A DNA stretch of 64,000 bases, from IMG/VR virus record IMGVR_UViG_3300031758_000006; one strand, written 5' to 3'. The translations under genes and the position numbers were made by a program. The notes beneath the pieces were generated by a model. The model was not told the origin of the DNA. It saw only the letters and a list, made by a program, of their open reading frames with translations, and did no database searches. This document shows, piece by piece, positions 1-44,469 of the stretch; positions within the stretch are counted from its first letter, which is position 1; each line of letters starts with the position of its first letter. Origin of the DNA: a virus.

Positions 1-51
1 ATTATCATCCTGGGTCTCCTCCTTTAATATTTCTTTAATTAATTCTCTCAT
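1..51 (-). CDS. 5' end of a gene running off the window start (MRELIKEILKEETQDDN...), with L/I-x-E leader
   Basis: ATG at 51 on the minus strand; leader resembles 4237..5199 and 27069..27731; TATTTAT at 118-124 upstream. Confidence 0.6.
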   Translation of the reverse strand, partial: MRELIKEILKEETQDDN

Positions 52-65
52 TTCTTTAATTTTTT

Positions 66-92
66 GTTTACAGTAGAGTGTTTACTGTAAAC
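66..92. promoter_or_regulatory. perfect 10-bp inverted repeat GTTTACAGTA-N7-TACTGTAAAC
   Basis: Read directly; lies in the 5' leader of the gene starting at 51; no U-tract follows on the minus strand. Confidence 0.4.
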
Positions 93-147
93 TAGTAAAT
101 TATCACGTTTGTTTTATATAAATATTACAAAGTTTATTTAAAAAAAT

Positions 148-169
148 AAACCCCCATTTTTGGTGGGGG
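148..169 (-). terminator. CCCCCA/TGGGGG hairpin, dispersed family
   Basis: aaacccccatttttggtggggg just downstream of the stop of 197..610. Confidence 0.55.
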
Positions 170-196
170 CTCATCTCATAGGTAGTAGTTATGGTA

Positions 197-610
197 TTAT
201 ACTATTGTAGTCTTAAGTATTTTTCCATCGACAAATCGACTTAATTCACACAGTTCAATGGTGTCGTCGTTTTTACTTATGGATGTAATTTCATTAACAA
301 ATCGTTCACACTCCTCTTCATTTTCAATATGTCCAATTTCGGTAGCTACAGACCCATTGAACTTTAATCTATATACACTGTAGGATTTTTCTTGTTTTTC
401 CTCAACCACAATTAAATTATCGTATTCGAGTCCACGACTATCGTCTTTCTTCATTAAATTCCCCTCGTCATCACGTTTGTAATGTACGTTGTGATAGAAC
501 CCACATTCCGGACAGGATGAGTACATTTCACCGGTCTTATAATAAAAATCCTCAAAACAATTATCCGAACCACATGTCGGACAATCAATGTTACTAATTA
601 CACTTCCCAT
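197..610 (-). CDS. hypothetical protein with N-terminal zinc ribbon
   Basis: CPTC and CPEC pairs; host-type promoter upstream. Confidence 0.75.
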   Translation of the reverse strand: MGSVISNIDCPTCGSDNCFEDFYYKTGEMYSSCPECGFYHNVHYKRDDEGNLMKKDDSRGLEYDNLIVVEEKQEKSYSVYRLKFNGSVATEIGHIENEEECERFVNEITSISKNDDTIELCELSRFVDGKILKTTIV

Positions 611-629
611 ATTTAATATTTTTATGAGT

Positions 630-660
630 TAAAATTAGTAGAAATAATTAAATAAACAAA
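630..660 (-). promoter_or_regulatory. Bacteroidota-type promoter variant TTTG-N19-TAATTTTA
   Basis: Spacing matches -33/-7 consensus; ends 20 nt upstream of the ATG at 610. Confidence 0.45.
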
Positions 661-695
661 TTTTTTTCGATATTTAATTTAAAACACGAAATAAA

Positions 696-821
696 ATGGC
701 TAAAGCAAAAAAAGAAGGTAAAAAGGGTAAGTCAAGAAAGAGTATCTTGAAAACTTTAAGATTGATCGAGAATAACAATCGATTAATATCTAAATACCAA
801 GAAGAATTAAGAAAGAATTAA
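696..821 (+). CDS. small basic protein, 41 aa (MAKAKKEGKKGKSRKSILKTLRLIENNNRLISKYQEELRKN)
   Basis: Manually translated, below the ORF-track cutoff; fills the intergenic gap; stop overlaps the stop of the convergent gene. Confidence 0.6.
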   Translation: MAKAKKEGKKGKSRKSILKTLRLIENNNRLISKYQEELRKN

Positions 822-1450
822 GGGTTAAATTCTCCTGGTTCAAACGGTTCTGTTACTGGGTTAATCGCGTGTAATGAATATGATCTATCTGGTCTGTATT
901 CCGCGTAAACATTATCAGCACCCACAATTTTATTTTGACCATCAGGTGTGAAGAAAAAGTCAGACAAGAATGGATTATATTTTATTTCTGTTGAGTTTTC
1001 TTTGAATGACATCGGATCATCTGGTAATTCCATTACTGTTCCACCAACACCAACTTTTTGTTGTCTTTTAGACATTTGTCCTTTGTCCTTTGTTGTTCTC
1101 ATTATTTCATGGTAACCTGGACTAATATCAAATGTGATGTCCCCACCAAGTAAAATATCATTAGTGTATCCAATGATACCTGGTTTAGCGTCTTTCTTTC
1201 CTCTACTTGTCAATCCAAAAACACCAAACCCACCGTTTCTATTCTTTTTTATGTTATGTCTATTGGTGTGAAACCAAACGTTTTTACCTAATAATTCTGG
1301 TGAGTCACCCTCCAAATACCCATGTTGAGCTTTTTTAGCTATTTTAGGTAGGTCCATATCCGGATGGTATGGTGGTGATTCATTTAAATATAAACCCATT
1401 ATGGATCTAATTTTTGATATTTCCTCGATTAATATTTTTTTTTCCATCAT
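818..1450 (-). CDS. hypothetical protein with leader (MMEKKILIEEISKIRSIMGLYLNE)
   Basis: Start reassigned to 1450/1447, just after TATTTAT at 1453-1459. Confidence 0.7.
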   Translation of the reverse strand: MMEKKILIEEISKIRSIMGLYLNESPPYHPDMDLPKIAKKAQHGYLEGDSPELLGKNVWFHTNRHNIKKNRNGGFGVFGLTSRGKKDAKPGIIGYTNDILLGGDITFDISPGYHEIMRTTKDKGQMSKRQQKVGVGGTVMELPDDPMSFKENSTEIKYNPFLSDFFFTPDGQNKIVGADNVYAEYRPDRSYSLHAINPVTEPFEPGEFNP

Positions 1451-1490
1451 ATATAAATATAATATAAAAATATTTTTGTATATTTGTAGT

Positions 1491-2765
1491 ATGTTATCTG
1501 ACAAATTAAATAATATTCCAAAGAGTCCTGGGTGTTACCTATTCAAAAATGGTAAGGATCAGATTATTTATATTGGTAAATCAAAGTTCTTACCTAAGAG
1601 GGTTAAATCTTATTTTAATAAGAATCAAAAAGATTTCAAAACCTATATGATGGTGTCTGAGATTAAGGATGTTGAGTTTATGTGTACGGATGATGAACCA
1701 CAATCACTTTTACTTGAGGATGATCTAATCAAGGTGTACAAACCAAAGTACAACATGAAGGGTAAGGATGATCGTTCAAGACGTTGGTACGTTACCGTGT
1801 CAGATGAAGAGTTCCCTAAAATAGAAGTATACAACTCCACAAAACTATCTGGTGAGATTTTACTTGAGTGTACCAACTCGAACACTTGTTACCTGATACA
1901 TGGTTTGATTTATGATATTTTTAACCTTAGAACATGTTCTTATGAATTGACTGAGGATAACATTTCTTCTGAAAAGTTCAAGGTATGTTTGGATTTTCAT
2001 ATTGGTAGGTGTCAGGGTCCTTGTATCTCTGGTATCTTAAAACATCGGTATAACGACATGATCAGTGACATTAGAAAGATATTCAATTTTGATTTTAGTT
2101 ATGTTAGATCAAAACTGAATCGTATGATGAAGTATCACTCGGACAAGTATGAATTTGAGTTAGCTCATAACTTCAAAGTTAAGTTGGATAAGTTATCAGA
2201 ACTAGAATCAATACTTGAACCATTTAGAGTTAAACACTATTCTGATCTGTCTCGTAAATTCAAAGAGGAGTTAGGTCTAATCAATTCACCCATTACTATT
2301 GAGTCTTTTGATAATTCACACACATCTGGTGATTGTCAGGTATCAGCTCTTGTTAGATATAAGAATTCAAAACCGGATAAATCAAACTACCGTAAATTCA
2401 ATATTAAAACTGTTTCTGGTCCCGATGATTACTCCTCATTTGATGAGGTATTAAATCGTCGATTTAAACGACTTTTAGATGAGAAACAAGAATTACCATC
2501 ACTCGTTGTTATTGATGGTGGTAAGGGTCAATTAAATGTGGCAAAATCCGTATTTGAGTCTTTGGGTCTGTTGGGTAAAATTGATTTAATATCAATCTCC
2601 AAAGACGATCGTCACCAACCAAAGACAATTCACACAATCGATGGTAAATCTATTGAGTTGATGGGTACCAGTTTTAAACATGTCTTGGGTGAAATACAAA
2701 ATGAGGTACATAGATTTGTAATTACTTTTCACAGGAATAAAAAAACAAAGAAATTGTTTAGTTAG
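1491..2765 (+). CDS. uvrC: excinuclease ABC subunit C-like protein, lacking the C-terminal HhH
   Basis: GIY-YIG (PGCYLFK..IIYIGKSK..KRVKSYF), Cys cluster (C..CL.FHIGRC.GPC), RNase H-like domain (IESFDNSH, PDDY, LPSLVVIDGGKGQL, IQNEVHRFVI); TATATTTG at 1479-1486 supports the 1491 start. Confidence 0.9.
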   Translation: MLSDKLNNIPKSPGCYLFKNGKDQIIYIGKSKFLPKRVKSYFNKNQKDFKTYMMVSEIKDVEFMCTDDEPQSLLLEDDLIKVYKPKYNMKGKDDRSRRWYVTVSDEEFPKIEVYNSTKLSGEILLECTNSNTCYLIHGLIYDIFNLRTCSYELTEDNISSEKFKVCLDFHIGRCQGPCISGILKHRYNDMISDIRKIFNFDFSYVRSKLNRMMKYHSDKYEFELAHNFKVKLDKLSELESILEPFRVKHYSDLSRKFKEELGLINSPITIESFDNSHTSGDCQVSALVRYKNSKPDKSNYRKFNIKTVSGPDDYSSFDEVLNRRFKRLLDEKQELPSLVVIDGGKGQLNVAKSVFESLGLLGKIDLISISKDDRHQPKTIHTIDGKSIELMGTSFKHVLGEIQNEVHRFVITFHRNKKTKKLFS

Positions 2766-3052
2766 TGTTTCTCGGATATTTCAGTCTCTATTGAGAATCT
2801 ATCACTTGGTATTTCCAAGTACTTATTAATCAAGAATTCAATTTTATCCTTATTGTCATCAATATAAAACTTATGAAATGGTTCATTCATATAATGGTTG
2901 TACACTAATTTAATTTCGTAAGTGTTGGTGTCCTCATCAAAGTATGTTTGTATTGATTTGACATTTCTAAAATCAAACATAGATAGGAAAGATTTTAGTC
3001 TATCATATTCATGACCATCATCTGGTAATATGTTATACATGTAATCGTCCAT
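2762..3052 (-). CDS. hypothetical protein
   Basis: ORF in tightly packed minus-strand operon. Confidence 0.65.
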   Translation of the reverse strand: MDDYMYNILPDDGHEYDRLKSFLSMFDFRNVKSIQTYFDEDTNTYEIKLVYNHYMNEPFHKFYIDDNKDKIEFLINKYLEIPSDRFSIETEISEKH

Positions 3053-3056
3053 ATGA

Positions 3057-3887
3057 TTAATATAAAGCTATGTTTGCACTATCTAAGTAGGTGTTCCCAT
3101 TTATATATTTTGACCCAAATTTTTGTTCAAAGAATTTAAAACTAGCCGTTTTAAATATCGACTCTTGGGTAAACCAACCCTTGTCTTTTAATTGGGGTTT
3201 AAGTATTTTTTTTACTTTATCTTGGTAAGTTCTATCATACCATAATACATTATTCTTGGGGTCGTAAATGTAATTAGCTTCGGTGCCACCACCACTATTA
3301 GCCACAATGTGATCATTTTTAAGTTTAAAGTAGTTTGTATTTAATATCGATATAACTTTGACAGCGGCTCTTATTTCCATCTCATTTTCACTATCTTCAT
3401 ATGATGGATCATATTTTTTTGACTCGGTTATGTTTTTATTACCCACAAATGATTTTATTTCTGGGTTGGTCTTAAATCTTTCCAGATCTTTTTCTACTTG
3501 ATCCTGATTACATTCATTGTTTTCAAAAAAGATATCTGGTATGTCATCACTTTCACCTTCCAGTATTGTTATAGACATAACATCCGGTAAAAACTTAATA
3601 GCTTCTTCCTCATATTCATCTATTTTATTTTGTATGTCACTATAATCGTGTACCCCCCTTGAGTCAATAAAGTTATCATTAACTTTTATATATGTATGGA
3701 TTAAATTTTGTGTGATGACCTCATCTGTTTCAACGACTTTTTCTTCAGATATTATTAAATAATAACAAACGTCATCATCCGGGAATTTTTCTTTAAAGTA
3801 ATCAATCACACCGTAAGCGAAGTAATGACAAAATCCATATTGGTAGTCATAATTATAATCTTTTGGTATGTCATTGTGTTTGTCCAT
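3057..3887 (-). CDS. hypothetical protein
   Basis: 276-aa ORF coupled to neighbours. Confidence 0.75.
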   Translation of the reverse strand: MDKHNDIPKDYNYDYQYGFCHYFAYGVIDYFKEKFPDDDVCYYLIISEEKVVETDEVITQNLIHTYIKVNDNFIDSRGVHDYSDIQNKIDEYEEEAIKFLPDVMSITILEGESDDIPDIFFENNECNQDQVEKDLERFKTNPEIKSFVGNKNITESKKYDPSYEDSENEMEIRAAVKVISILNTNYFKLKNDHIVANSGGGTEANYIYDPKNNVLWYDRTYQDKVKKILKPQLKDKGWFTQESIFKTASFKFFEQKFGSKYINGNTYLDSANIALY

Positions 3888-4240
3888 TAAAAAATTTGTT
3901 CGTTCAGTTTAAGAGAAACTCTAACTTTATATTTAATTCTTAGTGTGTCCTTAATATAATATAAAAAATCTTCCTCATCAAACTCATCATCATCTGTATG
4001 ATAAATATCAACTTTACCAATTATCATTTTTGATCCGTTATAATCCGGTTCCATTGATGACTCAACAACTTTTACTTTAGTGACATAATCCATGAAGTGA
4101 CATTCATCACCATGAAACCAATCAGGTTCCTCACCTTCATAATCTTCATCACAAACGTTTCTAAAGTCCTCCAAGACTCTATTTATTAACATTTGTAATA
4201 CATTATTAGTTTGATTTTCTGTTAGTAGTATTTTCATCAC
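3887..4240 (-). CDS. hypothetical protein with leader (MMKILLTENQ)
   Basis: ORF with overlapping start/stop; leader motif. Confidence 0.7.
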   Translation of the reverse strand: MMKILLTENQTNNVLQMLINRVLEDFRNVCDEDYEGEEPDWFHGDECHFMDYVTKVKVVESSMEPDYNGSKMIIGKVDIYHTDDDEFDEEDFLYYIKDTLRIKYKVRVSLKLNEQIF

Positions 4241-5199
4241 TTAAACATCTCATATTCATTCTCCCTCCTAATTTTTAATCCGGGATATTTTCTAAACATA
4301 TTTGAACTTATGTTTTTTATTTCTTCACGAGCTTCCTCAAATCTACCTTGTTTAACCAACTGTATGAAGTCACTTTTTCTAAAATTTGTAATTCCCATAT
4401 TAAATATTAGTGATATCATAGAGTTATACATACCCTGTGTTATTTTTGGTTTGATACCTTGTTCCTCCCAATCATTTAATATTTTATTTAAACTCTCGGT
4501 AGCTATTTGTATGTCATCATTTAATAATATTTCAGCCTGTTCTTTTGTGATTGTTGTTCTACCTGGTGTTATTTTATTGTACTTAGGTAAGAATTTATAT
4601 TTACCCCCATTGTCACCACGTCTTGGGTTACTGAATATCGCGTGACCATAACCTATGGTATAAGCTCCATCACCAAGATCATAAGCGGTTAACACAGGTT
4701 CACCTTTGTCATATATTGACCCCTCTTCATATTTTAAATGTTCAATTAAATCTGGTGATACTTCTCTAACTTTAACGTCAACCACCTTTTTTTGTTTTGG
4801 TTTAACAACCTGGGTTATATTATTTGGTTTACTATCAACTTTTGTCCCAATAACCTCACCCTCTATTGATGTAATTTGTGATATTGTCAAAATACCTAAA
4901 AATGAATACAAAACATATTTAAGTATTTTGTTTTTGATTGGTAATTGAACGTTTTCTAACTTTTTTAATAAGTTTTTTAAATATTCAATTACATCTTCTT
5001 TGGTTTTAACCCAACCTTTTGATTTATCAATATTTTGTTTTACGTCAGTAAAGTCCCAAACCATGTCTGGTTCTCTTTCATCTTCATTTTCGGTGAGTAA
5101 TGACACTAAATTAACAACACGGTCCAAATAGATATCGTGAGATTCTATTTGTAACCGTCTAGTTTCTTCTTTTAATATTTTTAAAATTAATTTATCCAT
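4237..5199 (-). CDS. GH24 (T4-type/phage) lysozyme with long N-terminal extension
   Basis: LKYEEG..AYDLGDGAYTIGYGH, ITKEQAEILL..D, SLIFNMG, LKIRRENEYEMF. Confidence 0.85.
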   Translation of the reverse strand: MDKLILKILKEETRRLQIESHDIYLDRVVNLVSLLTENEDEREPDMVWDFTDVKQNIDKSKGWVKTKEDVIEYLKNLLKKLENVQLPIKNKILKYVLYSFLGILTISQITSIEGEVIGTKVDSKPNNITQVVKPKQKKVVDVKVREVSPDLIEHLKYEEGSIYDKGEPVLTAYDLGDGAYTIGYGHAIFSNPRRGDNGGKYKFLPKYNKITPGRTTITKEQAEILLNDDIQIATESLNKILNDWEEQGIKPKITQGMYNSMISLIFNMGITNFRKSDFIQLVKQGRFEEAREEIKNISSNMFRKYPGLKIRRENEYEMFK

Positions 5200-6344
5200 T
5201 AATATACCGCTCTTGTTGCGTCTCCACCAATTGGTGTTTGTGTTGTACCACCACTAGTTGTTGATAATAAATTTGGTATTGATTTTAGAAGTTCTAATAT
5301 TTTTGTTTTAATCGATTCTGGGATTAATGCCAACAGGTCCTCAATGGTTCCAGTTTTTGCTGTTAGGAATTCTGTTATTTTGGTAATTACTGTAGCGTCG
5401 ATACCAGTTAATAAAGTTTTCAATGTGTCAAGTACTGTTTGTGGTATTTGTATCGTCGGGTATTTTGATTTTAGGTATTCGGATATTAAATCAATTATTG
5501 ATTTCCCCGTATTTGATTTTGATTTTGGTGGTTGGAAGAAGTGTATAACCTCATTGTTTCTTTCACATCTCCAAATGGTACTTCCGTAATGTTGTCCTTC
5601 AGGTCCAATCAGTCCTGATAAGTTTTCAGGACCAAAAGAAGCGTTTGACGGTAACATGGTATTTCCAGCTAAATTACCGTAGTTCCTACCTGGTTCACCA
5701 GCTTTTAATTTATTTATCTCTTCCTCTGTCGCTAATCTACCCATTCCATATGGACACGGATTGTCCTCACTTTGTCCAGGTGTTAGATTTGTTTTGTTAT
5801 CACCACCAACAACTGGTTTAACAAACGGTGTTTCAGTCCATTTATTTGTGGATTTAACCCCGTTTTTATCCATTGAGTACCCATCGGATAATAAAGTGTA
5901 TGACCCATCATCCAAAACGTATCCATACGTACCATCGGTTAATTTTGTAATCTTACCTTTAGGTAATTGTTCTGGTTTTATTTGTTTTAATTCTTTATTA
6001 AAATACTCAGTATACAATTCTTCATCTGTTTTTTGTGTTGTTGACAACTGTGATGATGTTTCGGCTGTGGTTTTAAATGTTACCAGTTTTTGTATAGCAC
6101 CTAATCTATTTCCAGTAGCTTCAGTCCAATTCGGGTACTGTTTTAACGGATCACCTTTAACACCTTTATAATAATATTTGGTTGTTGATCCATCATCAAC
6201 TTTAAGGTACTGAAATGGGTCATTAGGCCTATCCTGATTTAGGTATTCAGCTTCGGTTAATAATCCGGATCTATATCCAAATTTTTTGTGTAAAGATTTT
6301 ATTCTTTGTGATTCTTCTTCGGTTAATAAAAATTTATTTTTCAT
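5199..6344 (-). CDS. hypothetical putative virion protein (MKNKFLLTEEESQRIKSLH leader)
   Basis: 381-aa ORF; leader shared with 17874..18560. Confidence 0.75.
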   Translation of the reverse strand: MKNKFLLTEEESQRIKSLHKKFGYRSGLLTEAEYLNQDRPNDPFQYLKVDDGSTTKYYYKGVKGDPLKQYPNWTEATGNRLGAIQKLVTFKTTAETSSQLSTTQKTDEELYTEYFNKELKQIKPEQLPKGKITKLTDGTYGYVLDDGSYTLLSDGYSMDKNGVKSTNKWTETPFVKPVVGGDNKTNLTPGQSEDNPCPYGMGRLATEEEINKLKAGEPGRNYGNLAGNTMLPSNASFGPENLSGLIGPEGQHYGSTIWRCERNNEVIHFFQPPKSKSNTGKSIIDLISEYLKSKYPTIQIPQTVLDTLKTLLTGIDATVITKITEFLTAKTGTIEDLLALIPESIKTKILELLKSIPNLLSTTSGGTTQTPIGGDATRAVY

Positions 6345-31306: not shown

Positions 31307-34300
31307 TTATATTGATTCAAATCTACTGAATAATGTAAATTTAGCACATGTAGGTGTAGGTGTTGGTGTAGGTGCTGGTGTTGCTGATGGTGTTGGTGGA
31401 GGTGGTACTTGAGCGATCGCTCCGTCTAATTCACCACCACAAGCTATTGCAACAGGTACTGGGGTTTTCGAAGGTGTTGGTGTTATTGTTGGTGTCGGTG
31501 TCATAGTTGGTGTTTGTGTTGGTGTTGGTGTTAATTTAACCTCCTTAATTTTTTGTATTGTCATCCTACAATAGTCACCAGAATTATACACATAGTTACT
31601 TCCGGTTGTATTTGTTAATTTTAAACAAAGTTGTTGACCTTGATATATAAATACGTTAACTTGTGAACCATTGATTTCAAAGTATTGACTATCGTCTGAA
31701 ATATACCTGTGTTCACCAGCGTAAATAATATCATTTATAGGATCCACAATTCCAGCTGACATCATTCCGTTGTATATTTCAGAATTTGGTGTACATGGTA
31801 TTGTTTCACCAGATAAACATATTTGACAGTTACCTGGTACTGAGAATTGGTTACCACAAGCGAAGCAAGTGTAACAACTATCTAATGGTCCAATAAATAC
31901 CCAGTCACCAATACCTGATGGTTGTCCGTTTGGATTTATTGTCACGTTTTGACTTAACGGTACCGGTAAATCAAATGGTAATTCCATGTATATGGTGTTA
32001 TTTGTAACGTCCTCAACAACCCATCTAATTAGTACTGGGTCCCAATAAATTAAAATGTCAAAACCTGCACATCCAGATGGGCAATTTCCACCCGCTAGTG
32101 TTGTTCCAGAATAAGATGGTCTACCATTTATCGGCGTGTTAGTTAAATAAAAATTACTACCGTAATTCACAGATACTCCACCACCAAGAGGACATTCCCC
32201 AAAGAATCTAATACATTGTGGTGTTACCACCGGTTCTAATGGTGGTGTTATAATTACAGTTTTTGCTGGTTTTGGAGCTAAGTCTATTAATTCATATCCA
32301 TCTGGACAAATACCACAAGTTGTTTTAACACCGTTATCTAGAACTACATTAGCTGAACTAGTTATGACATAATCATTAATTATTGGTAATCCATTTGTAT
32401 TTGAGTTAAGGAAGTAATATGTTGGGTCGTTTGATACTGGATTTGGGTTACTATATATTTCATAAGCTAGGACGCCCTCTCCGGATCTATTAACCCCACA
32501 GATTTTAATTGTGTTTATTTGACCACCAATTAATGTGATGGGATATACATTCCAAAATGTATAATTCAATGGTTGTGATGGATTTAAAGTTTGATCTAAT
32601 ATCAATGTACCATTCAATGTTATTTTTGTAGCGTCTGAACAAACCCCAATAAAATATGTTTGTGTTTCTGGGACAAACAATGATTCACATCTACACAATT
32701 CACCCTCATAGTTTAAATTATTTTCAGCCCATATACCAATATCCCAAGCTCTTCGTCTCCAAAATCTAAGTAATGGACTAACTTGTATCATAGGTTGAGT
32801 ACCGGTACTGGAACAAACTTCCAAATCACTATAATTTTGATTACATTGTTGTGGTAATAAAGAGTATGTTGAGGTACATCCAAAATTAAACATAGTTGAT
32901 GGTCCAGTTCCATCTAATAAAAATGTTGGTTGGAATACTGCCACACCCTCTTTACATAATAATGGGTTAAATGGTAAATTGTTATCACATAGTAAACTAC
33001 TATATAATTCTAAGTTTTGTGTTTGTCCGCTACCTGCTGGTACCGTTACCCCAGAATAACACAATCCATTTGGTAATGGTTGATACCCTGGAGGACAATC
33101 ACATCCTTCGGTTGGTATTTTTGTAGCGTGTACCTGGAAACTAATATTATATAGTGAACTTTGTGGACATGTCCAAATACCAGTGACTGGATCGTAAGTA
33201 TTCGCTGGGAATAGAGTTTCCCAATCATCATATTGTTGTGAAGTTATTACCGGTAATTGTATTGTACCATCAAAAATTGTTCCAGATGGTACACTTGGGA
33301 TAATAGCTGGTGTGTCGATTGATACAGCCTCACCCATAGCTGCTATTAAAAATATGTTGTTTGTATTTCCGGTAACAACGAAGTTATCTGAGTCTAAACC
33401 TAAGTTAGCAACATCTTGGTTGTTTGGAATATCAGTAATTCGTAATTTTGGTGTAAATACTGAATCGTCTGTGTTAATATTTGAACTGGATAATATCTGT
33501 CCTAAATCAGTTAATCCGTTTAATGATTGGGTGTTAATTAAGTCCCCACCAACAATTACTGATCTTTGTGAAGAGTTGTTTGGTATAACCGCATTAATTG
33601 ATATAACACTAGATCCATCGTTCCCGGATAAAATTTGATTTGTTGTACCAAGAATAGATGATAAGTTTGACCCAGCAAAGTTTGAAGCTCCACCAAGAAT
33701 AGTTGTAAAAGCTGAATCGGTAAAGTTTTTATCCCCACCAAATATTGTTGACCCATTTTGTGAAATACTGTTGTTGGTACCACCAAAAATTACAGATCCA
33801 CATGAATCACCACCAATTTGGTTGTTGGATCCTCCACCAATGTAGTTAACCGATCCTTTAGTAACGTTTTGACAACCACCGAGTAATGTATTTCTATTAA
33901 AGTATGATCTATTCTCAGTTCCACCACCAATTGACGACATTCCAGTTCCTAAACTGGTTAGGTTGGAAGCTCCACCTAGGATAACAGAACACGCGTTCTC
34001 AATTAAATTTGTTTGTCCACCTAGAATTGATGAACCCACACTATCAGTGATGATGTTTCCAGTTCCACCACCAATTGAGTTGTCACAAACTTTCTTACTT
34101 GCAATCAAGTTAATGTAATTGTCGGTACCACCCAGAACTACCGAGTAATTACCAATCAATTTATTTCCCCAACCACCAGCAATTGTTGATCCATCTGACA
34201 TATCACTAGTAGAGTTTATGTTACCGATTGTGTTTAAATCACCACCACCAATACTTGAAAATATACCTTGTACTTTGTTTTCTTTACCACCGATTATACT

Positions 34301-34642
34301 AGAACATGGTTTGTAAATTACATTTTTAAATCCTCCACCTATCGATGACCTATTTGTTTTAATACTTTGATTGTATGTGAATATTAAGTTACCGTATCCA
34401 CCAATAATTGATGATTGACATGAATTATCAATTTTATTAGACGAACCACCTACTATTGTTGATCCACAGGAATCCAATTTTGTGGTTGATGAGTCTGGTC
34501 CAACAATAGTGTTTAACCTACCACCGAACACAGTTGAATACTGTGATCCAGCTAAATTACCAAGAGCACATCTAACTGTTGATGTTTGTCCACCACCCAA
34601 AAACTGGTTGTCCTGAATTATAATTTCTGTTATTACTGCCAT
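31307..34642 (-). CDS. large fibre/adhesin-like protein with GG-x-x-N beta-helix repeats and a PT-rich tail
   Basis: About 20 repeats like S(I/V)xGGxxN in the first 400 aa; CPPGY/CPDGY motifs; TPTPT repeats; start at MAVITE after TATTTAT at 34661-34667. Confidence 0.7.
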   Translation of the reverse strand: MAVITEIIIQDNQFLGGGQTSTVRCALGNLAGSQYSTVFGGRLNTIVGPDSSTTKLDSCGSTIVGGSSNKIDNSCQSSIIGGYGNLIFTYNQSIKTNRSSIGGGFKNVIYKPCSSIIGGKENKVQGIFSSIGGGDLNTIGNINSTSDMSDGSTIAGGWGNKLIGNYSVVLGGTDNYINLIASKKVCDNSIGGGTGNIITDSVGSSILGGQTNLIENACSVILGGASNLTSLGTGMSSIGGGTENRSYFNRNTLLGGCQNVTKGSVNYIGGGSNNQIGGDSCGSVIFGGTNNSISQNGSTIFGGDKNFTDSAFTTILGGASNFAGSNLSSILGTTNQILSGNDGSSVISINAVIPNNSSQRSVIVGGDLINTQSLNGLTDLGQILSSSNINTDDSVFTPKLRITDIPNNQDVANLGLDSDNFVVTGNTNNIFLIAAMGEAVSIDTPAIIPSVPSGTIFDGTIQLPVITSQQYDDWETLFPANTYDPVTGIWTCPQSSLYNISFQVHATKIPTEGCDCPPGYQPLPNGLCYSGVTVPAGSGQTQNLELYSSLLCDNNLPFNPLLCKEGVAVFQPTFLLDGTGPSTMFNFGCTSTYSLLPQQCNQNYSDLEVCSSTGTQPMIQVSPLLRFWRRRAWDIGIWAENNLNYEGELCRCESLFVPETQTYFIGVCSDATKITLNGTLILDQTLNPSQPLNYTFWNVYPITLIGGQINTIKICGVNRSGEGVLAYEIYSNPNPVSNDPTYYFLNSNTNGLPIINDYVITSSANVVLDNGVKTTCGICPDGYELIDLAPKPAKTVIITPPLEPVVTPQCIRFFGECPLGGGVSVNYGSNFYLTNTPINGRPSYSGTTLAGGNCPSGCAGFDILIYWDPVLIRWVVEDVTNNTIYMELPFDLPVPLSQNVTINPNGQPSGIGDWVFIGPLDSCYTCFACGNQFSVPGNCQICLSGETIPCTPNSEIYNGMMSAGIVDPINDIIYAGEHRYISDDSQYFEINGSQVNVFIYQGQQLCLKLTNTTGSNYVYNSGDYCRMTIQKIKEVKLTPTPTQTPTMTPTPTITPTPSKTPVPVAIACGGELDGAIAQVPPPPTPSATPAPTPTPTPTCAKFTLFSRFESI

Positions 34643-34688: not shown

Positions 34689-34720
34689 AAAAACCCCCAC
34701 AAATAATGTGAGGGTTTTTT
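34689..34720 (-). terminator. intrinsic terminator closing the 34882..35367 transcript
   Basis: Minus strand AAAAAACCCUCAC-AUUAUUU-GUGGGGGUUUUU; a G-U wobble works only on the minus strand. Confidence 0.75.
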
Positions 34721-34723
34721 ATA

Positions 34724-34878
34724 TGTCGTTATTAAATTGGTTATATAGTATGAATGATTGTTAAATTTTGACTAAAAAACTTTTGAACTTCATGAATTTT
34801 GTACTTTGAGTGCCTAATCAATATCTAACCATCGATTAACAAGTTGTAGAATTTAATATAACCATTTAATTAACGACA
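34724..34878 (-). ncRNA. candidate structured RNA (three nested helices) in the 3' region of the coiled-coil gene
   Basis: 34856-34878 pairs with 34724-34746 (22 bp, 2 bulges); 34836-34842 with 34758-34764; 34814-34821 with 34768-34775 (2 G-U). Confidence 0.55.
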
Positions 34879-34881
34879 CAA

Positions 34882-35367
34882 TTACTCGTTAGTTTTATCT
34901 TCATCAGTTTCTGATGGTTCGAGTCCAGGTAAAGTTGTTGTTGAATTATGTTGATCCAATTCATCTTGTATTTCATCAATTCTTGCTTCAAGAAATTTAA
35001 TTTCTGAGTCCCTTTCAACTACAGAAATTTCAGATTTTTTAATCGTCGGTGAATCTGAACGTCTTCCGTAGTAGTCATCCTCTGATACACCATCAGTACA
35101 GTCCACCCCTTTTAAGTGTTTAACAATACTCTTTAATTCGGACAATAAAAATATTTTATCGTATACCTCTGAATTAGCTTTGTGGATTTCAGTTTTTAAA
35201 GCTACCAACTGGTTTACTAAATTATACTGTTGTTCCAAAAGAGCTTTGGTTGAGTACGGTCTTTGATTTGACTCAGATACGGAATTGTATCTCATCATTT
35301 TAATTTGTGTGTCGGTAATCTCACCAACCAATCGATTTTTAAGTTTTAAAGCTTGTTTAATTGTCAT
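34882..35367 (-). CDS. coiled-coil protein resembling the DIP1984/DUF6847 family
   Basis: MTIKQALKLKNRL..LKTEIHKAN..IQDELDQHNSTTTL parallels MKLAEAL..IQ..NW.TEL as I recall the family. Confidence 0.5.
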   Translation of the reverse strand: MTIKQALKLKNRLVGEITDTQIKMMRYNSVSESNQRPYSTKALLEQQYNLVNQLVALKTEIHKANSEVYDKIFLLSELKSIVKHLKGVDCTDGVSEDDYYGRRSDSPTIKKSEISVVERDSEIKFLEARIDEIQDELDQHNSTTTLPGLEPSETDEDKTNE

Positions 35368-35396
35368 GATTTTAATTTTATTAAATTATATAAATT

Positions 35397-35903
35397 TTAT
35401 TTTAATATGTCAATACCTTTTTTCAATTTTTTATAATCTTCTTTTGATATTTCCACTAAATTAATGTTGGCTTCCAAATAAGAAGTCTCCGGATTCGTAA
35501 ATACTTCAAACTTTTGGTGTTTTTTTAATTTTGTATTTTCAGATCTTGTTACAAAATTGTATTTACCACAATTATTTAAATAAAAGTCAACCAGGTCAAG
35601 TTCACCACTTTCAATTTTATCTATATTGTTCAGTAGATGTGTCGCGGCAATCTTTCTTGGGTACTCATGTTCTTTTGTTGGTGAGTAACTTTTATTTAAT
35701 CTAATTTGGTTTAGACATTCTTCGGATATTTTTCCGGTCCAATTCTCGATTGAATCGGGTAAGTAGAATATTCCAGCCCCAAACATGGTTTCCATAAATT
35801 TCTTTTGGTCGTCACTGACGTTTGGGTCTGGGTATAATTCTTTTAATGATACTAACATTCTACGTAAAACTTCGCACCGGTCTTTTAGTTTACTGATGTT
35901 CAT
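35397..35903 (-). CDS. hypothetical protein
   Basis: 168-aa ORF; EHEYP motif. Confidence 0.7.
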   Translation of the reverse strand: MNISKLKDRCEVLRRMLVSLKELYPDPNVSDDQKKFMETMFGAGIFYLPDSIENWTGKISEECLNQIRLNKSYSPTKEHEYPRKIAATHLLNNIDKIESGELDLVDFYLNNCGKYNFVTRSENTKLKKHQKFEVFTNPETSYLEANINLVEISKEDYKKLKKGIDILK

Positions 35904-36034
35904 TGTTTAATTTCCGTTTTCGTGGTGTCATTATGAACTGGGGTGACACTTCCATAAGCGTCACACCCAGATTCTTTTTTTGATTTACATGAACCAAGTA
36001 ATAAACAAACAATTGCAAATACTACTACTCTCAT
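35900..36034 (-). CDS. small lipoprotein, 44 aa ([28 protein letters not shown]...)
   Basis: Manually translated; TAATG coupling to the dnaK stop, ATGA coupling to the next gene; LGSC lipobox. Confidence 0.7.
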   Translation of the reverse strand: MRVVVFAIVCLLLGSCKSKKESGCDAYGSVTPVHNDTTKTEIKQ

Positions 36035-37887
36035 TACTTAACCTCCTCAAATTCAACGTCAGACATGTTATCGACATTGTCGGAGTTTGGTTGTTCATAA
36101 AGGTTTTGACTAACTTCCTGGAACTTAGAATTTAATTCATCCAAACCAGATTTCATTAGATCAAAATCACGTTTACTTTGAGAATCTTTTAAATTTTCCA
36201 GCAGTGTGTTCAACTCAGTTTTTTGGTCCTCAGAAATTTTGTCTTCCAAATCTTTAATTGATTTCTCACTCTGGAATATAGTTGAGTCTACTGTGTTAAT
36301 TAACTCAGCCTCTTCTCTCAACTTTCTATCCTCATCCGCGTTCATTTCAGCTTCTTGTTTCATTCTCTCAATTTCTTCTTTCGATAAACCGGAGGATGAT
36401 TCGATTCTGATTGTTTGTTGTTTATTGGTTCCCTTATCCAAAGCTGATACATTAATAATACCATTAGCGTCAATATCAAACGTTACCTCAATTTGTGGGA
36501 CACCACGAGGTGATGGTGGAATACCATCCAGGTGGAATCGTCCAATTGTTTTATTATCCTTAGCCATTGATCTCTCACCCTGTAACACATGTATCTCGAC
36601 TGATGGTTGGTTTTCAACTGCGGTTGAGAATGTTTGTGATTTTTTGGTCGGTATTGTTGTGTTGGCTTCGATTAGTTTGGTGAACACTCCACCCATTGTT
36701 TCAATACCTAATGAAAGTGGTGTTACATCTAATAATAAAACATCGTTTACATCACCAGCTAAAACACCTCCCTGGATTGCGGCACCCAAAGCTACAACCT
36801 CATCTGGGTTAACACCTTTGGATGGTTCTTTACCGAAGAAGTTCTTAACAGCTTCCTGGATTACCGGAATTCTTGTTGTACCACCAACCAGGATAATCTC
36901 ATCGATATCTGATACAGACATCTTAGCGTTTTTCAAAGCTGACTTACACGGATCGATTGTTCGTTTAACCAATGAGTCAACTAGTTGTTCAAATTTAGAT
37001 CTTGTTAGAGTCCTAACTAAGTGTTTTGGGACACCGTCAACTGGCATAATATATGGTAAGTTAATCTCCGTTGAGGATGAGGACGATAACTCAATTTTAG
37101 CTTTCTCAGCTGATTCTCTAAGTCTTTGTAAAGCCATAGGATCTTTAGCTAAATCAATACCGTTTTCATCTTTAAATTCAGATACCAACCAGTCAATGAT
37201 GGATTGGTCAAAGTCATCCCCACCAAGGTGTGTATCACCGTCTGTTGAAAGTACTTCAAACACTCCGTCACCTAATTCTAGAATTGATACATCGTGTGTT
37301 CCACCACCACAGTCAAAGACAACAACTACCATGTCTGACTTCTTTTTATCTAGACCATAAGCTAAAGCAGCTGCGGTTGGTTCGTTTATAATTCTTTTAA
37401 CCTCAAGACCAGCGATCTCACCAGCTTCTTTCGTTGCTTGACGTTGTGAGTCATTAAAGTAAGCTGGTACCGTAATTACAGCTTCAGTTACAGTTTCACC
37501 TAAGTAATCCTCAGCGGTTTGTTTCATCTTTTGTAGAATAACCGCAGATAATTCTTGTGGTGTATACATTTTACCATCAATTTCAACTCTAGGTGTGTTA
37601 TTGTCACCTTTAACTACTTTGTATGGTACTTTACCCAACTCGGACTTTGAGTCTGAGTAACTTAATCCCATAAATCTCTTGATTGAGTAAATTGTTTTAT
37701 CTGGATTAGTGACCGCTTGTCGTTTAGCTGGATCACCTACTTTACGTTCCCCATCTTTCACGAATCCAATCACCGAAGGTGTTGTTCGTTTTCCTTCATT
37801 ATTTGTGATCACGACTGGTTCATTACCTTCCATAATCGCGACACATGAGTTTGTTGTTCCTAGGTCAATACCTATAATTTTTCCCAT
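36034..37887 (-). CDS. dnaK: molecular chaperone DnaK (Hsp70)
   Basis: [57 protein letters not shown]; full length. Confidence 0.98.
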
Positions 37888-38304: not shown

Positions 38305-38853
38305 TTAAAGTTTCAATACTTTAACCGACCACGGGTCAAAAAAATTATCAACTTCACAAGTTTTAATTTCATTGTGTAGAGCGTCGTAGTAATAATCACC
38401 ATTCAATATAGGTGTTTTTTCCATAATAAAGTATTTACGTCCATTGAAGTTGACTAATGAGGTCTCTTCTCTGTGTTCATCACATAGACAATATATCCAA
38501 CCACCGATTTTATGTTGTACTCCCGGTTCACCACAAACTTCACAAACATTAAAACTTTCTTTTTCAGCTTCAACAACAAAATGAAATCCATTTTCTGGTA
38601 AATTATCTAAGAATATACTCATTCCACCAAACTTTTGTTTTACATTTAAAAATTGTTTATCCCAACCCATTGATATTAAAGTCTCAAACAATCTTTGTAA
38701 AATACCTAACCAACCATTACTGACGGAAAAATTGTGTCGTTCTAAAATGGGTGATTTATGTTTATGAAATCCGTGATTAAGTCCACCAATATTTTTTAAA
38801 AAATTATTAAATTCTTTATCGGATAAATAATTATTGTTCATTCTTACTCCCAT
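38305..38853 (-). CDS. conserved phage hypothetical protein
   Basis: VKQKFGG..CEVCGEPG..GWIYCLC motif. Confidence 0.75.
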   Translation of the reverse strand: MGVRMNNNYLSDKEFNNFLKNIGGLNHGFHKHKSPILERHNFSVSNGWLGILQRLFETLISMGWDKQFLNVKQKFGGMSIFLDNLPENGFHFVVEAEKESFNVCEVCGEPGVQHKIGGWIYCLCDEHREETSLVNFNGRKYFIMEKTPILNGDYYYDALHNEIKTCEVDNFFDPWSVKVLKL

Positions 38854-39262
38854 CTTTATTGTACATTTTTAACATGGTTAACGAATTTCTTAATATCCAA
38901 TATGAGTCCCAGAATCCACCTCTATCATCCAGGAAGATGTTAGCGTACAATTTCCCATTTAACCCATATGGTTTGTCCCATTCTGAGTGCATTTGGTTGA
39001 CACCATGAACAACAATTCCAAGATCCTCCACTTGTTTTTTAGCGTTCACCAATTGTTTTTCACTTCTAGCGGTATTAATTAAAAATACTATACCATGTTC
39101 TTGACATTCCAAAATTAAATCAACCATTTTTTTACAGTTCTCTTTAATTTCTTCGTTGTAAGGGATAATAGTATCGTCAAGGTCACAAGCTATGATGATT
39201 TTCCCATTTTTAACCCATTCATTTGTTAATCGATTCGTATAAAAATTAGCGTGGTGTCTCAT
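38831..39262 (-). CDS. HAD-like protein
   Basis: IACDLDDTI, INTAR, KLYANIFLDDR. Confidence 0.7.
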   Translation of the reverse strand: MRHHANFYTNRLTNEWVKNGKIIIACDLDDTIIPYNEEIKENCKKMVDLILECQEHGIVFLINTARSEKQLVNAKKQVEDLGIVVHGVNQMHSEWDKPYGLNGKLYANIFLDDRGGFWDSYWILRNSLTMLKMYNKDGSKNEQ

Positions 39263-40229: not shown

Positions 40230-41261
40230 TTATTTTCCAAATCCAACAGTTCCGGATCCTTTTATTCTTGGTTTCTCAGCTAAAGATTCCAAATTACTAA
40301 TTGTTTCCTCAAATGTTCTTCCCATCACAATTACCGAAATAACAACCTCTTTTAAATGTGATAGGGACATCCCTTCAGTTTTTTTAACCCACAGATCAAT
40401 GTCAATACCCTTAATGTCTTCCTCATTTAATTTGTGGTTAATATACGCTCTTCTAATTTCCTCATTAGGACTCCCCACCTTATATCGTCTATCAAATCTT
40501 GATGGTCGATTTGTGATTCGTTCCTGGAGTTTCTCTGGGTAATTGGTTGTCGCGATATACACAACACCTTCAATTTGTTTAACCCCGTCTAGGATGTTTA
40601 ATAACCTAGCTGTTTGGTACCTACTTTCACTAGCTATTGAATCAATGTCTTCCAATAAAACAACAAGTGGTCTATTTGGTTCTACCTTTCTAAACGTTGA
40701 GATGAATGATGTAAATCTATCCACATCTTCTTCGTCTTTAACATTGATGACAATACCATTTCTCTCGATTAATTTTTGTGATATGAGTTGGATGATACCG
40801 GATTTACCACATCCTGGATCACCGTACATTAAAATTCCTCTTTTATGAATAAAATTATATGTTTTGTATTTGTCCGCTCTATTCCAGAAGTTTTCAATGT
40901 CTTCCAGGATATCTTTAATTTCTGGTGACGGTAAATGATATAACTCGTCCGTTTTGAATGGTTGTTTCTTTAATGTATGAGTTTGTAGATTACTATTCCA
41001 ACCTATTTCATAAACCCCAGCTGGTACTTGTGGTACTGTGACATAAGCGGGAGCGTATTCCTCATTTTTTAGATTACTCCAACAAGAAGGAACGTCTGTA
41101 TCAATTTTATGGCCCTCTTCTAGATCTGGTACTACCCTACCAATGATTGGTTCGTCAAATCTTCTTGGGTCATCGTCCGTGTACTCAAGTGTTTCTTCAA
41201 TATATTTATCACTCATATTATTTTTTTTTAAAATTTCTTTTAGTTCTTTTTTCCATTCCAT
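40230..41261 (-). CDS. AAA+ ATPase
   Basis: GDPGCGKS Walker A, LLEDID Walker B, TTNYPEKL, RPSRFD. Confidence 0.9.
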   Translation of the reverse strand: MEWKKELKEILKKNNMSDKYIEETLEYTDDDPRRFDEPIIGRVVPDLEEGHKIDTDVPSCWSNLKNEEYAPAYVTVPQVPAGVYEIGWNSNLQTHTLKKQPFKTDELYHLPSPEIKDILEDIENFWNRADKYKTYNFIHKRGILMYGDPGCGKSGIIQLISQKLIERNGIVINVKDEEDVDRFTSFISTFRKVEPNRPLVVLLEDIDSIASESRYQTARLLNILDGVKQIEGVVYIATTNYPEKLQERITNRPSRFDRRYKVGSPNEEIRRAYINHKLNEEDIKGIDIDLWVKKTEGMSLSHLKEVVISVIVMGRTFEETISNLESLAEKPRIKGSGTVGFGK

Positions 41262-41262
41262 A

Positions 41263-42354
41263 CTATTGTTCAGATTCCCCATAATGTTTAATCATGTGTT
41301 CTTCAATTTGATTTAAAATATGATTAGAAACCATATCATTATCAGGTCCTGTGGTAAATCTTTGTACTACCTGAATTGGTACCAACCTAGCTTGTCGTGT
41401 GACCGCGGTTACTTCTCTTTCTTCCATTACGATATCACAAACAGGAGGTTCCGGGTCAATAATTTCCTCTTGTTCTCCCGATTCATGAATCATGGGTTGG
41501 TTGATTTCATCAGGTAATTTACCATGATGTCCTCTCATTTTCTTTTTCTCATCATCCGAGAATAGTTTATAGTTTGGTATTGTTGTCGGTAATTTAAGAT
41601 CTGTCTCCCTTAATATTATTTCCAAGATGGAAAGTGGTAGTCCCGTTTGTATGGTATCAATTTGTTTGTCCTCCTGGTTGAATGTTTTAAACACGTAATT
41701 TTCGTGTTCATTAAACTCTAATTCAAAGTAATTCGGACAGTGTTTGTAGAAAGCGAACTTTTTATTTTCTTTTTTATCGATTAGGTAGATCAAAATACCT
41801 CTTGAATGGTTATAGAAATAAGAATCGTCATTAATCATAGCTGTACACCATTTAGTTTGGTAACCGTACGAACAAGATGACATATAAGTTAGTGGTTTAA
41901 AAATCAAATAATTTTGATCCTCATAAATCCTATGGATTTCTTTTTTTGATTTCTTAAACATCTCACGATTCTTAGCTTCAAATAAATTTGTCTCCAACAT
42001 TTCCCAAGAATCATATTTACTAATATCGTTTTCTTGTATTAAACCTTTCTCCATTAATTGTGTAAATTCCACAAATCTACTCATATTACCGTGAGAAAAT
42101 ATCCAGTCAGTAATATAATCCCTAATTAGAGCGTTTTCACAAGAACTGTATGGCATTACATCATCAAGTGGGTCGTTTTCACGGAATGGTCTTACAAAAC
42201 TCCTGTCGTTTTCGATTGCCGATACTTTTTTAGTAAACATTTTAACTAAAAATTGTGTATATTTTTTAGTTTTAGTCGAATCAAACTTAGATAACATGTC
42301 AATGAGTGTCATGTTTAAAAGATCATTTTCTTTTTTTAATTTTTTAATCCCCAT
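41263..42354 (-). CDS. hypothetical protein, 'YGxxTKWC' family
   Basis: IYEDQNYLIFKPLT..SCSYGYQTKWCT; paralog of 48331..49263. Confidence 0.8.
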   Translation of the reverse strand: MGIKKLKKENDLLNMTLIDMLSKFDSTKTKKYTQFLVKMFTKKVSAIENDRSFVRPFRENDPLDDVMPYSSCENALIRDYITDWIFSHGNMSRFVEFTQLMEKGLIQENDISKYDSWEMLETNLFEAKNREMFKKSKKEIHRIYEDQNYLIFKPLTYMSSCSYGYQTKWCTAMINDDSYFYNHSRGILIYLIDKKENKKFAFYKHCPNYFELEFNEHENYVFKTFNQEDKQIDTIQTGLPLSILEIILRETDLKLPTTIPNYKLFSDDEKKKMRGHHGKLPDEINQPMIHESGEQEEIIDPEPPVCDIVMEEREVTAVTRQARLVPIQVVQRFTTGPDNDMVSNHILNQIEEHMIKHYGESEQ

Positions 42355-43079: not shown

Positions 43080-44207
43080 TCAATGGGAGTCCCCAACATT
43101 ATGTTTTTCACTGAAAATTAAATAATCTGGGTTAATAACTTTAGATACCTTATTTCGTTCTCCGGTAATCGTTTTAACCACAACACCTTCGTGAGGTACT
43201 TTGGTTCCTCTAATGAAATTATTAAATACGTATTCGTCTTGTTCTTCTTTAGACCATTTTCCTATGTATAATAATTCAACGGTTGGTAACTCCAAGTCAA
43301 TAAAGATCCCACGTTCAACAAAAAATTCTTTATAGTTACCATTAATTTCAACATCAAAACCAGCGAACTTAATATCCTCCAGTTGGTAATCATAATTTTT
43401 TTGAATCCCGTATCCATAGATTTCACCGTAAATAATTAAACCACTTTGTAATCTTTCCGGTGTATAATAAGTTTTAACATATTTCCATAATTTTTCTTTA
43501 ATCATGTATTGGTCCGCGATTGTTCTCCAAACATCTGTTGAGTAGAATCCCTGGGATTCAGATCCCTTCTCAACGTTATGAGATCCGTATACATACTCAA
43601 AGTAAACCCACTTATTTCCAAATAATCTCCTAATACGATCAATAATGGATAACTTTTTCTTTTTAACTATCCCATACCTAGCGTTGGTTCCATGAAGTTT
43701 TCTTGTTATAACTACTGTGTCCTCACCGGTGAACATATCCGGAACATTTTTTTGATTCGGGAATTTATGGTAAACATGGAAGTTTGGGTTTTGGTGATAT
43801 TTAAACTTTCGTCCACCTGAAACTAATGTAACGGTTTTTACCGGTGGTTCATATTTGGTGATCTCCATTTTTTCCATCATGTCCATACCGTCATAATACT
43901 GATCACCATAACCTGGTATGTACTTAGTGGGGATTATTAAACACTCTGAATAAACACCTCTCAATTTGACCGTACGAACTCTTTGGCCCTTACGTAGGTA
44001 ATTGGTCACACCCATTTTATCGGATAACTCCTGTGGTATTATCGCGTCTGTTGTGGCTATTACAACCAGGTCACCAACTTTATATTCACCTTTTGGGGTT
44101 ATGGAGTTCCATCCATTAACCATAACTAATTCAATATTGTCTGAATTTGGTATTTCGGATATTGACCCTATCGTACCAACATAAGCTACACTGTTTTGAT
44201 TTTCCAT
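43080..44207 (-). CDS. RNA ligase, DRB0094-type (OB-fold + nucleotidyltransferase)
   Basis: IPNSDNIE..VRTVKLRGVYSE; TRKLHGTN motif I, IYGEIYG, FAGFDV, EGVVVK. Confidence 0.88.
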   Translation of the reverse strand: MENQNSVAYVGTIGSISEIPNSDNIELVMVNGWNSITPKGEYKVGDLVVIATTDAIIPQELSDKMGVTNYLRKGQRVRTVKLRGVYSECLIIPTKYIPGYGDQYYDGMDMMEKMEITKYEPPVKTVTLVSGGRKFKYHQNPNFHVYHKFPNQKNVPDMFTGEDTVVITRKLHGTNARYGIVKKKKLSIIDRIRRLFGNKWVYFEYVYGSHNVEKGSESQGFYSTDVWRTIADQYMIKEKLWKYVKTYYTPERLQSGLIIYGEIYGYGIQKNYDYQLEDIKFAGFDVEINGNYKEFFVERGIFIDLELPTVELLYIGKWSKEEQDEYVFNNFIRGTKVPHEGVVVKTITGERNKVSKVINPDYLIFSEKHNVGDSH

Positions 44208-44208
44208 A

Positions 44209-44469
44209 TTATAGTTTTTCAAATTCTTCTTTTACTAAATCTATTTCTTCATTCAACCTCTCAAGTGATTTGGTAATCATTTCTTTAATAAGATTTGTAT
44301 TATAGAGACTCACCTCTTGTTTACTCGGATAAACTCCTCCCTTTGAATATTCAACTTTTACACCTAAACTACAAGATTTAAGTGCGGATTCCAGTTTATA
44401 CTTTTGTATTTCTAACCTATCAAAATTCTCTTTGATTTTTTTTGCCTGTTCAAATTTTTCTACTTCCAT
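44209..44469 (-). CDS. hypothetical protein
   Basis: ORF in operon. Confidence 0.65.
   Translation of the reverse strand: MEVEKFEQAKKIKENFDRLEIQKYKLESALKSCSLGVKVEYSKGGVYPSKQEVSLYNTNLIKEMITKSLERLNEEIDLVKEEFEKL

Follow-up and report, generated by a model that had tools for sequence, protein, structure and literature searches.

The stretch of viral DNA analysed here, which spans 64,000 nt and is referred to below as the window, carries on its minus strand a compact transcription unit that consists of a promoter match, an open reading frame (ORF) for a 161-aa protein of the DIP1984/DUF6847 type, a structured RNA element, and an intrinsic terminator, in that order (Table 1). A promoter-like site also precedes the homologous gene in the related loci L001/L002. 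The 5' arm of the stem that closes the RNA starts 2 nt past the stop codon of the gene, and this close spacing is a general property of the arrangement, with at most 8 nt between stop codon and stem start in 51 of 54 loci; on the other side of the element, 41 of 60 related elements have a terminator-like hairpin 3' of the closing stem. In the window this terminator sits directly past the outer stem, as an earlier note made from the letters of this DNA had claimed. The neighbouring genes examined in the window encode a tail-fibre-like protein, an unknown 168-aa ORF, DnaK, an AAA ATPase, a HAD-like protein, and an RNA ligase.

Table 1. Features of the gene-RNA unit, of the RNA within it, and of neighbouring genes in the window
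Feature	Position	Strand	Remarks
Candidate promoter, TTGACA-17-TATAAT	35385..35413	minus	12/12 consensus match; ~17 nt 5' of the start codon
161-aa DIP1984/DUF6847-like gene	34882..35367	minus	ORF
Structured RNA element	34722..34880	minus	159 nt, first to last closing-stem pair
Closing stem P1, 5' arm	34856..34880	minus	25 nt
Unpaired junction	34834..34855	minus	conserved UACAA(C/A)U motif at 34848-34843
Inner helix, GAU-rich 5' strand GAUGGUUAGAUAUUGAUUAG	34814..34833	minus	
Heptad array	34756..34809	minus	~8 slots of 7 nt; ends in conserved AAUC/ACUC
Inner helix, 3' strand	34775-34756	minus	last 20 nt of the heptad array
Closing stem P1, 3' arm	34722..34746	minus	pairs with 34880-34856
Intrinsic terminator	34689..34719	minus	13-pair hairpin, then T run
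Protein of ~1111 aa past the terminator	31307-34642	minus	many GGxxN-type repeats, Thr/Pro-rich tail
DnaK/HSP70 homologue, full length	36034-37887	minus	83% identical in L002
HAD-like hydrolase	38831-39262	minus	upstream of the module
AAA ATPase	40230-41282	minus	upstream of the module
RNA ligase (PHA02142 OB-fold + RNA_ligase)	43080-44222	minus	upstream of the module

The AlphaFold2 model of the 161-aa protein (pLDDT 83.7) predicts helices at residues 3-27, 40-86, and 116-143 together with a beta-hairpin; the C-terminal tail is acidic and disordered, and the first 115 residues are basic, with a pI of 8.9 in the window protein and a median of 9.2 in the family. Structure searches with this model return as the best match 3KDQ, a Corynebacterium diphtheriae protein with three long helices and a beta-hairpin, followed by generic helical hairpins. 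The match is strong by Foldseek (TM 0.70-0.74, probability 1.00) as well as by VIA (Z 13.1, rmsd 2.4 Å over 141 of 152 residues, the next best at Z 9.0), and 3KDQ alone qualifies as a clear structural relative. The corresponding family is catalogued as DIP1984 or Pfam DUF6847 (PF20935) and as NCBIfam NF038048, and its members are often annotated as 'septicolysin'. The earlier note had suggested a likeness to this family, which stands at the level of the fold but falls below both curated sequence cut-offs: the window protein scores 13.8 bits against PF20935 (E 0.057, with a gathering cut-off of 27 bits) and 18.9 bits against NF038048 (cut-off 70), for which two relatives reach 33.6 and 35.1 bits. 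Given these weak sequence-model scores and the 3KDQ fold, the protein is filed here as a distant, fold-level relative of DIP1984/DUF6847. Relatives at 50-62% identity carry precomputed PF20935 matches, and a search of PDB sequences with the family profile finds no match, the relation to 3KDQ being visible by fold alone. Among defence and phage resources, no PADLOC model matches the window protein, two relatives having a marginal, non-significant match to the LmuB coiled coil, and PHROGs holds no family for the 161-aa gene. When the assembly of four copies of residues 1-146 is predicted, the homo-oligomer scores 0.67, a value that one unrelated control nearly equals (0.63), and the prediction therefore carries no weight either way.

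As for the RNA, the earlier note had proposed an outer stem with two single bulges that joins 34878-34856 to 34746-34724 and encloses two nested helices, an architecture that is borne out for the most part. The outer stem, P1, is present and proves slightly longer than described, with 24 bp and two single bulges between 34880-34856 and 34746-34722. The comparison with shuffled controls that the same note had proposed as a check favours the element: the fold of the 163-nt sequence is better than chance, at -34.0 kcal/mol against -20.0 ± 3.0 in dinucleotide shuffles (z -4.65, with none of 200 shuffles as good), and the antisense of the window element has a z of -2.24. The innermost of the proposed helices, 34821-34814 with 34775-34768, belongs to the minimum-energy fold and is invariant among close relatives. 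For the middle helix, 34842-34836 with 34764-34758, the complementarity is perfect in the window, but it is not the conserved pairing, being instead an alternative pairing of the same UUAAC unit: it competes with the pairing of 34833-34822 with 34766-34756 that relatives retain, and it shows no compensatory changes, four of its seven pairs breaking in at least one of four close relatives. The TTCATGAA palindrome that had been pointed out in the apical part is lost even in the closest relatives.

The search for relatives of the protein yields 381 in a large protein collection, many of which carry precomputed PF20935 matches, and the loci fetched comprise 80 from IMG/VR and 29 from genome contigs of GTDB, the latter mostly from freshwater Bacteroidota and in some cases from Planctomycetota, Armatimonadota, and others. 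Starting from the gene, an iterated nhmmer profile of the RNA core detects a single copy, which lies immediately 3' of the gene and in the same orientation, in 96 of 112 homologue loci, and the profile search detects the core down to ~33% protein identity; in most of the loci that the profile misses, the GC-rich Planctomycetota included, visual inspection shows the same layout, with a closing stem and a GAU-rich strand, an array of 7-nt units, and CUC at the end. Starting from the RNA, a scan of IMG/VR with an 18-base pattern taken from the core leads to 79 places, of which 48 match the core profile, and a DIP1984-like ORF lies within 1 kb upstream on the same strand in all 47 RNA-first elements that have enough flank; the other 31 places match neither profile and are regarded as chance. 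The gene-RNA pairing that the earlier note had suspected therefore holds in both directions, and a conserved downstream stem, which it had named as a feature to look for in homologues, is found, reaching at least 12 bp in 61 of 74 distinct elements with a median of 21 bp. Within the window itself the covariance model described below matches 34714-34884 only, with no second copy of the RNA in the 64 kb. No matches are returned by blastn of the region against GenBank phages or by tblastn against plasmids.

The module is also visible by eye in two GenBank records of 'uncultured phage' genomes that lack annotation, LR756500 (462 kb) and LR756511 (595 kb): in both (LR756500.1 430585-434058, L192; LR756511.1 278640-282050, L193) a homologue 31-34% identical is followed on its 3' side by a stem-closed RNA with UUCAAAA/GUUAAAA heptads and a terminal AUC/ACUC. 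In several loci a small extra ORF lies between the gene and the RNA, which is nevertheless kept; these are L019, L024, L029, L033, L035-L039, and L041, where the RNA follows ~190 nt past the gene, as well as the 595-kb phage (L193). The extra ORF of one phage lineage encodes 72 aa with a zinc-ribbon-like CxxC...CxxC arrangement, and that of the 595-kb phage encodes 28 lysine-rich residues.

The evidence that the closing stem is maintained as a pairing comes from its turnover. At 60% protein identity the inner motifs of the RNA are kept and the closing stem is entirely different, and over the whole set the arms of the stem fall into ~28 unrelated sequence clusters, each of which pairs with its own partner arm. 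When the outer 26 nt of the arms are exchanged between clusters, the average energy of the cognate pairs, -16.9 kcal/mol, compares with -7.3 ± 3.5 for arms of other clusters. In the subfamily of the window (83-89% protein identity), a plain MAFFT alignment is sufficient for RNAalifold to derive a consensus structure with 50 pairs, of which 5 are compensated. For diverse members the combination of MAFFT and RNAalifold gives almost no structure because unrelated stem arms are misaligned, and these members are assessed instead by per-family folding, by the arm-swap energies given above, and by alignment to a covariance model. This model was built from the MAFFT alignment of the window subfamily and iterated once, and 48 distinct sequences were aligned to it. 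In that alignment, which leans towards the structure of the model, 78.5% of the cells are paired. Shuffled controls reach 56.0 ± 0.8%, none of the 500 equalling the observed share, and sliding the partners lowers pairing to 37-45%. For covariation, the score of 0.372 compares with 0.126 for shuffles and no more than 0.081 for slid partners, and changes on both sides occur at 23 of 23 closing-stem pairs. Two of the rows are likely false positives that entered the seed alignment (L083/L084, 1997-2106, an A-rich stretch inside an upstream ORF). Per-family folding also reveals a covarying hairpin that has been added past the 5' arm in many lineages. A further short helix, P3, in which the junction would pair with the bases past ACUC, was considered and is unsupported, at -2.6 kcal/mol for cognate and -2.2 for non-cognate combinations (p 0.065).

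The strand on which this structure acts can be read from its wobble pairs, in that G.U outnumbers A.C by 127 to 57 in the stems when both transition mismatches are scored alike, and this excess points to an RNA of the gene's strand. Folding energy leaves the two strands indistinguishable, averaging -36.3 kcal/mol for sense and -36.4 for antisense. With the core profile found in 96 of 112 loci and the covariation of the stem, the earlier claim of a conserved structured RNA on the transcribed strand is well supported.

Inside the closing stem the main feature is periodic. The earlier note had remarked on three CAAA units in the apical loop, which are present, but it missed the larger array of 7-nt UCAA-type units to which they belong. 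The family core consists of 6-8 slots of N-U-C/U-A-A-A-N at 7-nt spacing: a lag of 7 nt between CAA motifs occurs 88 times in the 3' half of the core, compared with 3.2 ± 1.8 in shuffles, further spacing peaks lie at 14-15 and 21-22 nt, and the frequency of U just before the motif, at a position left free by the selection of the units, is 0.91. The array of the window holds this register over ~8 slots, of which 5 are good units, with YAA at 34808, 34801, 34785, 34770, and 34763; the slots at 34794 and ~34778 are degenerate. In composition the array is 40% A and 9% G, and its mean unpaired probability is 0.54 as against 0.22 for the stem arms. The inner helix is formed by the GAU-rich strand and the last two units of the array and is invariant in close relatives, with 70.5% of its positions paired family-wide; since it occupies two heptad units, part of the array may not be free.

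The surroundings of the module differ between lineages. The order in close relatives is AAA ATPase, HAD-like protein, two unknown ORFs, (DnaK), the gene with its RNA, and the tail-fibre-like protein, with the RNA ligase a few kb off. DnaK adjoins the module only in the closest relatives of the window and in L002 and so is not a general partner of it. The ~1111-aa protein past the terminator, which is probably a tail fibre, weakly resembles proteins that L003, L008, and L014 encode downstream of the module, and in L112, a relative of 201 kb, the same RNA ligase and the module are ~3 kb apart. The window has no tRNA; tRNA genes lie directly upstream of the gene in 6 of 60 loci, which represent six other phage lineages (L051, L052, L058, L060, L072, and L082), an adjacency that is suggestive only. 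In L060 (positions 1-5426 of IMG/VR 3300042569_002815), the module is placed between an array of 11 tRNAs, accompanied by a freshwater-1 RNA (1823-1885), and a GOLLD RNA (3642-4076), after which a tRNA-Met follows. A bacterial copy in Arcicella aurantiaca DSM 22214 (L199, QGGO01000004.1 140035-158463) has the gene and a 237-nt gap downstream of it, just upstream of genes for HsdR, HsdS, a PBECR3 protein, and HsdM (type I restriction-modification), followed by HTH_17 and AAA_25, surroundings that resemble a mobile or defence island.

In two studies, freshwater RNA libraries yielded contigs that extend from the ORF through the stop codon into the element (34725-35161 and 34800-35004); such contigs may derive from contaminating DNA, they carry no information on ends or levels, and the parts of the window that they leave uncovered have no bearing. 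One metatranscriptome contig (234 nt, depth 3.5), which has the sense of the minus strand, joins 34691 to 35152 and is thus permuted, spanning 462 nt. Position 34691 is the third U past the terminator stem, a plausible terminated 3' end, and 35152 lies inside the ORF; the joint could reflect ligation or circularisation of the RNA, template switching, or a chimeric assembly. An RNA ligase is encoded by the phage.

Taken together, these data establish an RNA element that is real, conserved, strand-specific, and tightly linked to its gene, with a 7-nt periodicity in the RNA and a DIP1984-type fold in the protein, and from them we infer protein-RNA binding, its stoichiometry, the processing of the RNA, and a downstream role. 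The reading that we prefer, and to which we grant slightly better than even credence, is that of an RNA-scaffolded assembly, in which several copies of the protein would be lined up on the row of heptads of an RNA defined by its closing stem. One transcript would give rise both to the basic, helical protein with the DIP1984 fold and, as its 3' part, to the stem-closed RNA of ~160 nt, and the two would form a ribonucleoprotein in which protein copies may stand side by side on the G-poor row of 6-8 slots, one copy per 7-nt unit. The extent of the RNA would be set by the long closing stem, which would also shield the ends of the RNA and may be the site at which the RNA is excised from the mRNA. 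Because the stem begins at the stop codon or at most 8 nt from it, a terminating ribosome and the folded RNA would be mutually exclusive on one molecule, which could couple the output of protein to the folding of the RNA. The drifting stem, the conserved periodic core, and the near-absolute linkage in both directions make the element unlike a mere stability element or a DNA site. Among the points against the assembly are the degenerate array of the window, with 5 good units in ~8 slots, the two heptad units taken up by the inner helix, and the fact that each mRNA provides one RNA but many proteins, a stoichiometry that the assembly leaves unexplained.

Among the competing explanations, a cis-acting element of the 3' untranslated region would set the amount of protein by acting on the stability or processing of the mRNA, for example as an RNase III site or a block to exonucleases, without any separate life of the RNA. 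The position of the RNA between stop codon and terminator agrees with this, as do the short distance to the stop codon in 51 of 54 loci, a closing stem long enough for RNase III, and the RNA-library contigs in which ORF and RNA are joined. A stability stem, however, needs no conserved core of ~100 nt, nor does it call for a 7-nt motif and an invariant end motif that are kept from ~33 to 100% protein identity while the sequence of the stem drifts, and in some lineages the RNA is retained even with a second small ORF between it and the gene; we accordingly regard this explanation as unlikely. We judge in the same way the proposal that the RNA restrains the protein, either as an antidote of the type III kind or by autoregulation, with the heptad row titrating the protein until the RNA decays. 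Strict co-inheritance of gene and RNA, the several units per RNA that resemble binding sites, and the island location of the bacterial copy, with a type I restriction-modification operon as its neighbour, would all be in keeping with restraint, but the downstream position of the RNA and its 7-nt units differ from known type III systems, no nuclease fold appears among the structural matches of the protein, the best of which is the helical protein 3KDQ, and defence models fail to match the window protein in PADLOC, with marginal, non-significant matches in two relatives.

Less probable again is a decoy or sponge for a host factor that binds G-poor, UC/A-rich single strands, such as Rho or an Hfq-like protein, with the gene as a co-transcribed helper. 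An array with 9% G that is about half unpaired and carries repeated YC/A-rich units would suit such a factor and resembles sponge RNAs such as CsrB and CrcZ; yet the near-absolute linkage to one protein family, in phages and in several bacterial phyla, would be needless for a host-directed sponge, and we know of no host factor whose site would fit a 7-nt spacing. Finally, an element acting as DNA (the inverted repeats of a mobile element, an iteron origin, or a recombination site), which the long inverted repeat, the short direct repeats, and the equal average folding of sense and antisense might bring to mind, is scarcely credible in view of its single copy in fixed orientation to the gene and inside the transcription unit, the G.U excess on the gene's strand, the pairing that is kept while the stem sequence drifts, the lack of a second copy in the window, and the presence of the stretch in RNA-library contigs.

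Returning to the RNA-scaffolded assembly, its downstream role would perhaps lie in a conflict between phage and host over RNA. The module stands beside tRNA arrays, a GOLLD RNA, and RNA-repair genes in huge phages and beside a restriction-modification operon in one bacterium, so it may belong to the RNA side of phage-host warfare. A wider proposition is put forward tentatively, at just under an even chance: the DIP1984-like protein and its heptad RNA would represent a widespread and undescribed class of ribonucleoproteins, in which a small helical protein is assembled in order on an RNA template with a 7-nt register, and both large phages and mobile islands in several bacterial phyla would carry this class, with a role in RNA-centred virus-host conflict. 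DIP1984/DUF6847 has a solved structure and is spread through bacteria, plasmids, and phages, and an obligatory RNA partner, if true, would be the first functional handle on the family; it would also add a new class of structured RNA to the catalogue and a new design of protein-RNA particle, in which a small helical protein reads a 7-nt register.

No published description of the gene-RNA pair was found, nor any literature linking the DIP1984/DUF6847 family to an RNA partner, and the name 'septicolysin' occurs in the literature found as an annotation label only. At the gathering threshold Rfam 15 has no match in the window and none at the element in 20 related loci; when the region is scanned permissively, the matches (RsaJ, leader peptides, and similar families) all fall on the terminator, score far below threshold, and are treated as noise. 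The earlier note was reminded of retrons and of type III toxin-antitoxin RNAs, and neither comparison carries over. The RNA resembles that of a retron in being bounded by long inverted repeats (of the a1/a2 type, here a 24-bp stem), a feature that is not specific to retrons, but it is flanked by a DIP1984-like gene and a tail-fibre-like gene, neither of which encodes a reverse transcriptase, and the partner gene in the 47 RNA-first loci is always DIP1984-like and never a reverse transcriptase. In type III toxin-antitoxin systems (ToxIN, AbiEi-like RNA antitoxins), tandem repeats of ~34-36 nt precede the toxin gene, from which a terminator separates them, and the toxin, a sequence-specific endoribonuclease with a ToxN/AbiQ-like fold, processes these repeats. 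Like them, the module combines a protein gene and a repetitive non-coding RNA that are inherited together as one unit and are found on mobile elements and in phages. The gene order is reversed here, however, with the RNA 3' of the gene and the terminator past the RNA, the repeats are units of 7 nt rather than ~36 nt within one folded domain, and among the structural matches of the 161-aa protein (3KDQ and generic helical hairpins) there is no endoribonuclease fold.

Closer parallels are provided by two groups of RNA-binding proteins. Ro60 (Rsr) is encoded in Salmonella by rsr, which is followed by yrlA/yrlB, and also occurs in some phages. As in the module, a protein gene precedes a partner RNA closed by a long stem of its 5' and 3' ends, and both arrangements occur in phages as well as bacteria, at times with tRNA or RNA-repair genes nearby. 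They differ in that the protein here is a small helical bundle instead of a TROVE/vWA ring, with no Pfam match to a TROVE domain in the 161-aa protein, and in that the core of the RNA is a 7-nt periodic array and not a tRNA-like module, with no match to Y RNA/YrlA or any other Rfam family. TRAP with the trp leader and HutP with the hut leader, both of Bacillus, are oligomeric proteins that read evenly spaced short RNA motifs, and the module likewise presents a short motif at fixed spacing in a G-poor, accessible stretch; by analogy, such a row suggests one protein subunit per unit. In this case the units have a UCAA core and a length of 7 nt instead of being G/UAG triplets, the protein fold is unrelated, and the RNA lies at the 3' end of the protein's own gene and not in a regulated leader. 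Membership in the retrons, the type III systems, or the Ro-Y RNA group thus fails in each case on a defining feature, and the best functional analogies for the module are those with Ro-Y RNA and with TRAP/HutP.
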